This document shows, one piece after another, positions 2,023 through 2,058 of a stretch of 12,830 bases of DNA (positions are counted from its first letter, which is position 1; each line of letters begins with the position of its first letter). Position numbers and translations under genes: made by a program. The notes beneath the pieces are model-generated. The model searched no databases, was not told the origin of the DNA, and saw only the letters and a list, made by a program, of their open reading frames with translations. The DNA comes from a virus. Location of the stretch: IMG/VR virus record IMGVR_UViG_3300033153_014375. The stretch is one strand, 5' to 3'.

Positions 2023-2058
2023 TTTCAAAATAGGGTTTGTATGTCAGTCAGATTTGGG
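2023..2058 (+). promoter_or_regulatory. Conserved 36-nt intergenic motif, copy A: TTTCAAAATAGGGTTTGTATGTCAGTCAGATTTGGG. Candidate phage-specific promoter/operator upstream of the gene at 2114.
   Basis: 29 of 36 positions are identical to 10134-10169 (TTTCAAAATCGGGTTTATGTGTCAACGCGATTTGGG). Both copies lie 50-90 nt upstream of a gene start that follows a long non-coding region. Confidence 0.5.

Follow-up and report, generated by a model that had tools for sequence, protein, structure and literature searches.

Background

T7-like phages use conserved 23-bp promoters for a single-subunit RNA polymerase, often located beside RNase III hairpins, while the late promoter PR'/qut of phage lambda with its terminator tR' is the site of Q antitermination. 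Operator-type sites of temperate actinophages, i.e., the L5 stoperators (13 bp, GGTGGMTGTCAAG), the phiC31 CIRs and the Cluster K SAS/ESAS, measure 13–17 bp and occur in ~20–30 copies per genome. Morons of lambdoid phages, reportedly described by Juhala/Hendrix et al. in 2000, are said to be autonomous insertions composed of promoter, gene and terminator. In T4-type phages, a small stem-loop and a promoter form the PeSL composites, which are repeated in hyperplastic regions, flank orphan genes and are found where relatives are separated by an indel (Arbiol et al. 2010, PMC2839356; Comeau et al. 2014, PMC4122927). The present analysis concerns a 36-nt motif standing twice in the virus record IMGVR_UViG_3300033153_014375 (the window, i.e., the whole stretch of DNA analysed, which is an entire JGI metagenome contig of 12,830 nt from an uncultured phage). 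Judging from related contigs, a strand-specific DNA signal of ~50 nt, which has this repeat as its core, is common to a small clade of uncultured phages, and there is about an even chance that the signal represents a phage-class-specific promoter plus the initially transcribed leader. What was observed is that the motif is repeated more closely than chance allows, is conserved across relatives, lies between genes and on the gene strand, and in places follows terminators or stands at a cassette junction, and that a conserved RNA fold or reading frame and sigma-70 geometry are lacking.

The two copies of the motif in the window

The 36-nt core is present at the following positions:

2023-2058, + strand: motif copy 1, TTTCAAAATAGGGTTTGTATGTCAGTCAGATTTGGG, 55 nt 5' of ATG 2114
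10134-10169, + strand: motif copy 2, TTTCAAAATCGGGTTTATGTGTCAACGCGATTTGGG, 86 nt 5' of ATG 10256

The original prediction had described the motif as occurring twice with 29 of 36 positions shared, and positions, strand and copy number were confirmed. When every ungapped direct pair of 36-mers in the window was compared, the two copies formed the top-scoring pair (29/36 matches), while the best pairs in 30 first-order Markov simulations of the window reach only 24–26, in agreement with the claimed similarity beyond chance. Likewise, the predicted location 50–90 nt upstream of start codons after long non-coding DNA holds: the respective stretches comprise 528 nt (1586-2113) and 302 nt (9954-10255), and both start codons (2114 and 10256) are preceded by Shine-Dalgarno-like sequences. 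The two spacers resemble each other only at the motif and a few flanking bases, and no third copy was found in the window, even when 3 mismatches were allowed or a profile hidden Markov model (HMM) was applied. The poor fit to sigma-70 geometry also stood up in a consensus scan and in a further scan of our own, since no pair of TTGACA-like and TATAAT-like hexamers 16–18 nt apart lies inside either copy (nor near the copies of the related contigs L004 and L098, see below); the best internal candidates, TTTCAA and TATGTC, are separated by 11 nt.

Conservation of the motif in related phages

Megablast of the window against cultured phages gave no match, and tblastn of the helicase and the DNA polymerase yielded less than 30 % identity. 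Protein-based scans of IMG/VR for relatives were without result, and a scan of GTDB genomes retrieved helicases only (20–40 % identity over the best segment) and no close relative. Since none of these three sources provided a close relative, the window is regarded as a member of an uncharacterised phage clade. Relatives were reached via homologues of the helicase (56–61 % identity) and of the DNA polymerase, providing the contigs L004/L005, L006, L007, L008, L098, L099/L100 and L101; the sister contigs L001-L003 share 99.5 % identity with the window. The relatives are incomplete genomes (contigs up to 42 kb, parts examined), and copy counts refer to those parts. The gene order shared by the clade is major vault protein (MVP)-like, uracil-DNA glycosylase (UDG), helicase, DUF932, ligase, a 134-aa family, a 350–400-aa family, glycosyltransferase, family A DNA polymerase (PolA), SSB and RecA.

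The relatives were scored for the 29 shared positions, next by a position weight matrix and finally by nhmmer, which yielded the following copies:

L006 2988: TTTCAAAACTAGGTATGTATGTCAGCGAGATTTGGA (shared-position/matrix scoring)
L004 5714: TTCTCAAACTGGGTTTGTACGTCAGCCAGATTCCAG (shared-position/matrix scoring)
L004 12757: TTCTCAAACTACACCTGTATGTCAGCGACATTTGGG (shared-position/matrix scoring)
L008 3167 and L008 8653: weaker copies (shared-position/matrix scoring)
L098 496: added later
L007 6556 (E 0.0015) and L099 260 (E 0.0021): weaker copies (nhmmer)

In a non-circular test, an HMM built from the two window copies alone and run on 102.6 kb of relatives matched L006 2988 (E 9e-5), L004 5718 (E 0.0019), L098 496 (E 0.0055) and L004 12772 (E 0.29), all of them on the + strand; copy 1 matched the HMM of the clade at E 3e-12. 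Identity between copies amounts to 58–81 %. Because unselected spacer DNA should be unalignable at ~60 % protein identity (helicases 56–61 %), the motif is judged to be kept by selection across the clade. Copy 2 is identical in L001-L003 despite 8 single-nucleotide polymorphisms (SNPs) in the 125 nt directly 5' of it. Every copy is intergenic and on the gene strand, spacers making up ~9.7 % of the sequence, and the joint chance of such a location for the six strong or moderate copies outside the window is ~1e-8. The motif is richer in AT than its genomes, the GC content being 36–50 % in the six strongest copies and 56 % in L008 8653, compared with genomes at 52–61 %. Distances from copy to start codon are 10, 19, 40, 55, 86, 90 and 339 nt (~90 nt for the L098 copy), a variable spacing which suits a promoter and not a translation signal.

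The search for further copies proposed in the original prediction had a divided outcome, with none elsewhere in the window, which is the whole contig, and several in the related contigs; the objection that no additional copies exist does therefore not apply. In IMG/VR, the exact shared pattern found no match and a degenerate pattern 16, which scored low with the matrix and all came from unrelated, AT-rich phages. In the JGI metagenome collection scanned, of which the window's own contig is not part, a 22-base pattern had no match; the L004 contig was the only relative retrieved with a degenerate pattern, whose other matches were an unrelated recurrent sequence and AT-rich sequences hit by chance. 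A literature search with motif strings returned unrelated primers only.

Extent and nature of the signal

Going by the alignment, the element is larger than originally described, with a conserved span of ~50 nt (CTtAtAGGGG-TTTCAAAAY-N-GGGTTTGTATGTCAGC-N-AGATTTGGGAATTC) and a possible second block. The parts outside the 36-nt cores are:

10124-10133, + strand: 5' extension of copy 2, CTATAGGGGA; in relatives CTAATAGGGG, CTTATAGGGG and CTAAAGGGCG (alignment)
2059-2063, + strand: 3' extension of copy 1, AATTC; GGGAATTC is common to copy 1 and the L006 and L008 copies
2074-2090, + strand: tentative second block after copy 1, AATTCGTTTTGCTCAAG (weak, by alignment only)
10185-10201, + strand: tentative second block after copy 2, AATTGTTTGACCCTGAG, overlapping the -35 hexamer of the promoter at 10191-10219

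The second block (AATTCGTTT..CCCTGA) is located 12–15 nt further 3' in copies with a long leader and is weak. The most conserved core of the element is TGTATGTCAG. A partial dyad, TTTCAAA...TTTGGGAA, has an arm spacing that varies by 1 and by 7 nt, and its arms change in concert in L008 3167 and L098 (CAAA to CGAA/TGAA with TTTG to TTCG).

The consensus structure obtained with RNAalifold contained 0 pairs for 10 copies and reached -0.92 kcal/mol for 6 extended copies, single-sequence folds disagree among copies, and no Rfam family matched the motif, even when matches up to E<=10 were admitted for the small region searched. A structured cis-regulatory RNA or an Rfam non-coding RNA (ncRNA) was rejected on these grounds.

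That the repeat arose by chance or is the relic of a short coding segment has next to no probability. The pair scores above all simulations. With respect to coding, frame 1 is open in both window copies (reading FQNRV..S.RFG), and the differences at positions 10 and 28 would represent synonymous Arg codons (AGG/CGG and AGA/CGA); however, frame 1 stops in L006 2988 (TAG) and L008 3167 (TGA), and the other two frames are interrupted as well, such that each of the three frames has a stop in at least one copy and a coding function of the motif was rejected. Moreover, the window copies agree at 11 of 12 third codon positions, which is the opposite of coding divergence, and the flanks share no frame.

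Sigma-54 (-24/-12), sigma-28, ECF sigma (AAC/CGTC), sigma-B/F (GTTT..GGGWAT) and Bacteroidetes -33/-7 promoters as well as IHF sites did not fit by inspection against their consensus sequences, and all of them leave the conserved core unexplained.

Predicted promoters, terminators and hairpins adjoining the motif

The surroundings of the two window copies contain the following features:

1609-1634, + strand: intrinsic-terminator-like hairpin and T run after the MVP-like gene, 390 nt 5' of copy 1
1653-1827, + strand: the first of the long hairpin domains in the spacer 3' of the MVP-like gene; the MVP-UDG spacers of L098 and L004 are orthologous to its 5' part
1827-2009, + strand: long hairpin domain (arms 1827-1851 and 1985-2009) ending 14 nt before copy 1
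9954-10124, + strand: long imperfect hairpin ending 10 nt before copy 2
10191-10219, + strand: sigma-70-like promoter TTGACC-17-TATGAT between copy 2 and the gene, starting 22 nt 3' of copy 2
10256-10660, + strand: 134-aa gene 3' of copy 2, of unknown function, kept in the clade at 47–55 % identity

In L004, a terminator-like hairpin with a 15-bp stem (12691-12724) lies 33 nt 5' of the motif at 12757. Due to the terminators upstream of this copy and of copy 1, transcription has to be restarted for the genes that follow. In three relatives, a gap of 7 nt separates the start of the motif from the preceding gene's stop codon.

The sigma-70-like promoter 3' of copy 2 has counterparts in the clade, TTGAYY-17-TAYGAT being kept before the homologous 130–151-aa gene in L008 (8968-8996), L006 (5807-5835), L099 (~1138) and L101 (~905), which suggests that this gene family is early and host-transcribed. 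The presence of canonical promoters would mean that host polymerase reads ordinary promoters in this clade and that the motif constitutes a second class.

An operator, i.e., a site for a phage regulator (repressor or activator) without promoter activity of its own, which would control adjacent promoters or block elongation like the phiC31 CIR sites and the L5 stoperators, appears rather unlikely. It would agree with copy 2 ending 22 nt 5' of a conserved sigma-70-like promoter, which is the expected position of an activator or repressor, with the partial dyad and its concerted changes on both sides (L008 3167, L098), with the location of the L008 3167 copy in front of a ribbon-helix-helix (RHH) gene, and with the GTGTCAAGT repeats at 2900-2920, which resemble the TGTGTCAA core of copy 2. 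However, the motif lies only 10 nt (L004 12757) and 19 nt (L006 2988) from the start codon with no sigma-70-like promoter nearby; in case of L004 12757, the strong terminator on its 5' side in combination with the missing sigma-70-like promoter implies that something in the motif must start transcription. Near-continuous asymmetric conservation over ~50 nt also makes a long operator, the dyad arms are variably spaced, and no DNA-binding protein was identified in the window.

Terminator-like hairpins are also present 50–70 nt 3' of three copies: in case of L004 5714 at 5799-5814 with a T-rich tail, in case of L008 8653 as a 13-bp stem at 8759-8788, and in case of L098 496 as read from the sequence, unflagged by the terminator scan. 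They could represent an attenuator, a short RNA or a PR'-tR'-like arrangement. In L008 (8689-8800), the ~70 nt after the motif are followed by a strong terminator well 5' of the next gene, and this segment may be a short phage RNA.

Such hairpins have also to be considered for a cis-acting element of the transcript, be it an antiterminator-loading or pausing leader (lambda nut/qut, HK022 put) or an RNA processing site that would separate structured RNAs (tRNA, transfer-messenger RNA (tmRNA), long hairpins) from downstream mRNAs. They resemble lambda PR'-tR', conservation runs 3' of the core into the second block, several copies are situated 10–14 nt after structured RNA (window hairpins, L007 tRNA/tmRNA cluster), and the changes in the two arms are concerted. 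Nevertheless, a transcript element is clearly unlikely, considering that RNAalifold gave no consensus structure and folds differ by copy, that the upstream context is mixed (7 nt after a stop codon in the three relatives, elsewhere a terminator or hairpin), and that the terminator L004 12691-12724 would block an upstream transcript unless antitermination were already active.

The hairpins adjoining the window copies are 170–180 nt long and not conserved in sequence. The 8 SNPs (7 transitions) of L001-L003 versus the window cluster within 72 nt (10044-10115) in the 3' half of the hairpin at 9954-10124; they leave its fold energy unaffected (-73.8 versus -73.0 kcal/mol), and the adjoining motif is invariant. 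The RNA fold of 1640-2113 has a z of -9.3. The two hairpin domains at 1640-2010 are strongly structured without an Rfam match, a CTGGCGC...GCGCCGG hairpin in the 5' part being kept in L098 and L004, and may represent an unknown ncRNA beside a vault-protein homologue.

Copy 1 at the left edge of an inserted cassette

The following features delimit a unit that begins with copy 1:

2008-2020, + strand: left copy of the 13-nt direct repeat GGATAGTCTCCAT, junction just 5' of copy 1; this sequence directly precedes the UDG start in L098 and L004
2114-2692, + strand: 192-aa orphan gene carried by the cassette
3041-3124, + strand: terminator-like right end, GGGGCGGGG...CCCCGCCCC hairpin followed by TTTATT
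3144-3156, + strand: right copy of the 13-nt repeat GGATAGTCTCCAT, fused to the UDG start codon (ATG 3154)

The MVP-UDG spacer of L098 and L004 is the orthologue of window segment 1586-2022. In these two relatives, the spacer ends uninterrupted with CCTGATAGTCTCCATWCGAGGAAC..ATG, the latter being the UDG start, whereas in the window the motif comes after GGATAGTCTCCATACG, beginning at 2023, and is succeeded by the orphan gene, a non-coding stretch of 450 nt and the GGGGCGGGG...CCCCGCCCC-TTTATT hairpin. Since the 13-nt repeat recurs at 3144 and L098 and L004 display the uninterrupted arrangement, we infer that 2021-3143 is an inserted 1.1-kb unit, composed of promoter-like motif, gene and terminator, within a 13-nt direct repeat. 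The 192-aa protein had no homologue but itself among 5.8 billion proteins, and matched phrog_1491 in PHROGs (E 1.7e-12). Other copies of the motif are likewise found at the left edge of regions with variable gene content among relatives (MVP to UDG, DUF932 to ligase).

These positions, with copy 1 exactly at the left junction of the insertion and its 13-nt direct repeat, would also be expected from a mere recombination scar or hot spot that shuffles cassettes without any regulatory role. Such an origin has very little probability, because a passive scar would neither keep 25–29 of 36 positions at ~60 % protein identity nor be limited to one strand and to spacers; furthermore, the recombination role of PeSLs in T4 rides on a functional promoter/terminator (PMC4122927).

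A second short motif, (CCT)GATAGTCTCCAT, is located directly 5' of the UDG start in relatives (L098 3622, L004 8713) and once more in L099 (9840); in the window it is present twice, bordering the 1.1-kb cassette on either side (2008-2020 and 3144-3156). Recombination may target this motif, or it may serve as an extended -10-like promoter (TGATAGTCT).

Proposed function and recognising factor

For the favoured reading, a promoter with its initially transcribed leader, a start of transcription, its position and a recognising protein are what we infer from the sequence. The signal would restart transcription at the left edge of gene cassettes, apart from the canonical sigma-70-type promoters, and would be read as double-stranded DNA by a phage-directed transcription machinery, candidates for which are a polymerase or sigma factor encoded by the phage, or the host polymerase under the direction of a phage activator. 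Two geometries are conceivable. In the first, TATGTC at positions 18–23 would act as a -10-like element with a start near the conserved A at position 30, which is compatible with a 7-nt duplication in L004 and L098; in the second, T7-like ATTT-GGG would place the start at position 34. Regarding the claim of the original prediction that the motif is a promoter or operator marking the starts of transcription units, the part concerning a functional, non-sigma-70 signal at unit starts is borne out, while a start of transcription and the type of factor are matters of interpretation.

Several observations weigh against a promoter. No gene for an RNA polymerase or sigma factor was found in the window or in the ~35-kb gene map of the clade (Pfam, PHROGs, NCBIfam and PDB-sequence searches), and no regulator gene was found in the window and in the relatives only one RHH and one helix-turn-helix gene, both in L008. 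Copies are far sparser than T7-type promoters (1–2 per 12–18 kb), and none was found in L101 or in the 10 kb 3' of PolA in L099, L100 and L101. We know of no promoter consensus matching the core TGTATGTCAG, and the 7-nt duplication within the 3' part of the L004 5714 and L098 copies would upset a fixed-geometry T7-like promoter. Motif and sigma-70-like promoter are arranged in tandem at copy 2, where the motif could be an upstream regulatory site. Finally, a simple promoter model leaves the downstream terminator-like hairpins unexplained.

As for individual factors, no T7-like RNA polymerase (Pfam RNA_pol) was detected among the proteins of the window, L004 (18.6 kb), L006-L008, L098, L099 and L101, all of which are incomplete genomes. 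Window and relative proteins contained no family match to an antiterminator of the Q family, Q proteins being diverse and the genomes incomplete, and no repressor or integrase was seen; the only repressor-like genes are the RHH and helix-turn-helix genes of L008, with none in the window.

It is distinctly improbable that the element, taken as ~50–80 nt, serves as recognition and loading site of an undescribed transcription system. This could be a promoter for an unrecognised phage polymerase or sigma-like factor, or a multi-copy PR'/qut-like boarding module for an antiterminator; the latter would explain why three copies have a terminator on their 3' side. MVP homologues, tRNAs and a tmRNA are further products of the unstudied clade that would possess the system.

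For an uncultured clade without cultured or catalogued relative, the motif offers access to the transcription programme by way of sequence. It would mark the beginnings of transcription units and exchangeable cassettes. Two promoter classes, TTGAYY-17-TAYGAT versus the motif, would imply temporal regulation. The motif may be used as bait for the recognising protein and as probe for further fragments of the clade. It would constitute the defined target of the factor, should this turn out to be a polymerase, sigma factor or antiterminator of a new type.

Other features of the window and the clade

All plausible genes of the window are on the + strand, and the phage appears to be lytic, going by its gene content. 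Besides the orphan gene and the 134-aa gene (the single-sequence AlphaFold model of whose product is unusable, pLDDT 38), the window contains:

14-1585, + strand: MVP-like protein, C-terminal 523 aa
3154-3987, + strand: UDG, start ATG 3154
4536-6152, + strand: SF2 helicase
8431-9516, + strand: ATP-dependent ligase

A DUF932 protein, a phosphoesterase, a 145-aa protein and a proline-rich 386-aa protein are encoded in addition.

In contrast to the partial gene of the window (14-1585), complete MVP homologues of 871–894 aa are encoded in L004 (5840-8455), L098 (622-3306) and L008 (22-2682); the MVP homologue was recognised by Pfam (MVP_shoulder, 4.7e-26; Vault_3). A 2023 preprint lists only two phage MVPs, both from gut phages (10.1101/2023.11.10.566534). 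A gene 5' of the MVP gene in L004 (2322-3389) encodes an ARPP-1/ARPP-2 domain protein (Pfam 1.1e-30). The ARPP-1/ARPP-2 domain family is tied to conflict systems.

The long spacers of relatives harbour tRNA genes and a complete tmRNA (Rfam 102 bits, tag AKDNTGAFAAPARMVA), the tRNA/tmRNA regions being:

L007: 5748-6123 and 6284-6378
L006: 5432-5507 and 5595-5664
L004: 1811-1887

The window has no callable tRNA and no tmRNA, only a T-arm-like GGGTTCAAACCCC at 2821-2833. Tandem repeats 5' of replication genes, i.e., GTGTCAAGT (x2.3) at window 2900-2920 and CAACACAGGGACT (x4) in L098 at ~3430-3490, look iteron-like.

At 6971-6980, the window carries 10 nt that are absent from the sister contig L001, affecting the open reading frames (ORFs) 6136-7263 and 7062-7865. 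A 375-aa ORF of the window overlaps a 267-aa ORF by 200 nt, whereas L001 has genes for 287, 85 and 200 aa instead. The phosphoesterase probably starts at 7263, and the 10-nt indel could be real variation or an assembly error. An Rfam match to CC0196 (Caulobacter small RNA) on the - strand inside the ligase gene (9068-9125; 28.4 bits, below the gathering score of 35) is most likely due to chance.

Comparison with known systems

The motif is an ordinary kind of phage element, the sequence itself being new, i.e., absent from Rfam and the searchable literature. Like the actinophage operator-type sites, it is asymmetric, orientation-specific and confined to spacers, and the heptamer TGTCAAG/TGTCAAC is shared with copy 2 and the repeats at 2900-2920, a shared 7-mer being no evidence of kinship. 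It differs in its length of ~50 nt, the few copies and the lack of a visible repressor or integrase. A repeated operator of the stoperator type was tried as candidate and rejected in view of the ~50-nt span and the 1–2 copies per 12–18 kb.

With lambda PR'/qut, the motif shares a conservation that runs without a break from the promoter into the initially transcribed part, as well as a terminator within ~100 nt in three copies (L004 5714, L098 496, L008 8653), located before the genes. In contrast, no Q-like gene was identified, several copies occur per genome, and a sigma-70 -35/-10 pair is missing; the gaps of 10–19 nt at L004 12757 and L006 2988 provide no room for a terminator, and none is present at the window copies.

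Resemblance to T7-type promoters extends to the one-strand genes, to a repeated non-sigma-70 motif in gene-strand spacers and internal to operons, to motifs sometimes located directly after a stop codon and to adjoining large hairpins. An AT-rich stretch followed by GGG is also common to both, ATTT-GGGA recalling TATA-GGGAGA, and ATTT-GGG is kept in most copies. However, ~50 nt are conserved versus 23, the copies are sparse and only 69–81 % identical (58–81 % in the wider comparison of copies), two copies contain the 7-nt duplication in the would-be -9 to -3 region, and no gene for a single-subunit RNA polymerase was seen in ~35 kb of the clade. To our knowledge, there is no sequence similarity to the promoters of T7, T3, SP6 or K11.

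The segment 2021-3143, in which one orphan gene stands between the motif and a terminator-like hairpin and which separates genes that are adjacent in relatives, resembles a moron; yet moron promoters are host-type, and the phage appears lytic. In case of the PeSLs, the promoters are early sigma-70 promoters whereas the motif is devoid of sigma-70 geometry, the hairpins here are 170–180 nt long and unconserved in sequence, and the insertion is bordered by the 13-nt GGATAGTCTCCAT rather than by two motif copies. The likeness is nonetheless evident in two respects: an inserted orphan-gene cassette begins with copy 1, as the variable MVP-UDG and DUF932-ligase regions do with other copies, and long hairpins end 10–14 nt 5' of both window copies. 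Being repeated, the signal would, like morons and the PeSL elements of T4, also mark sites of cassette exchange.

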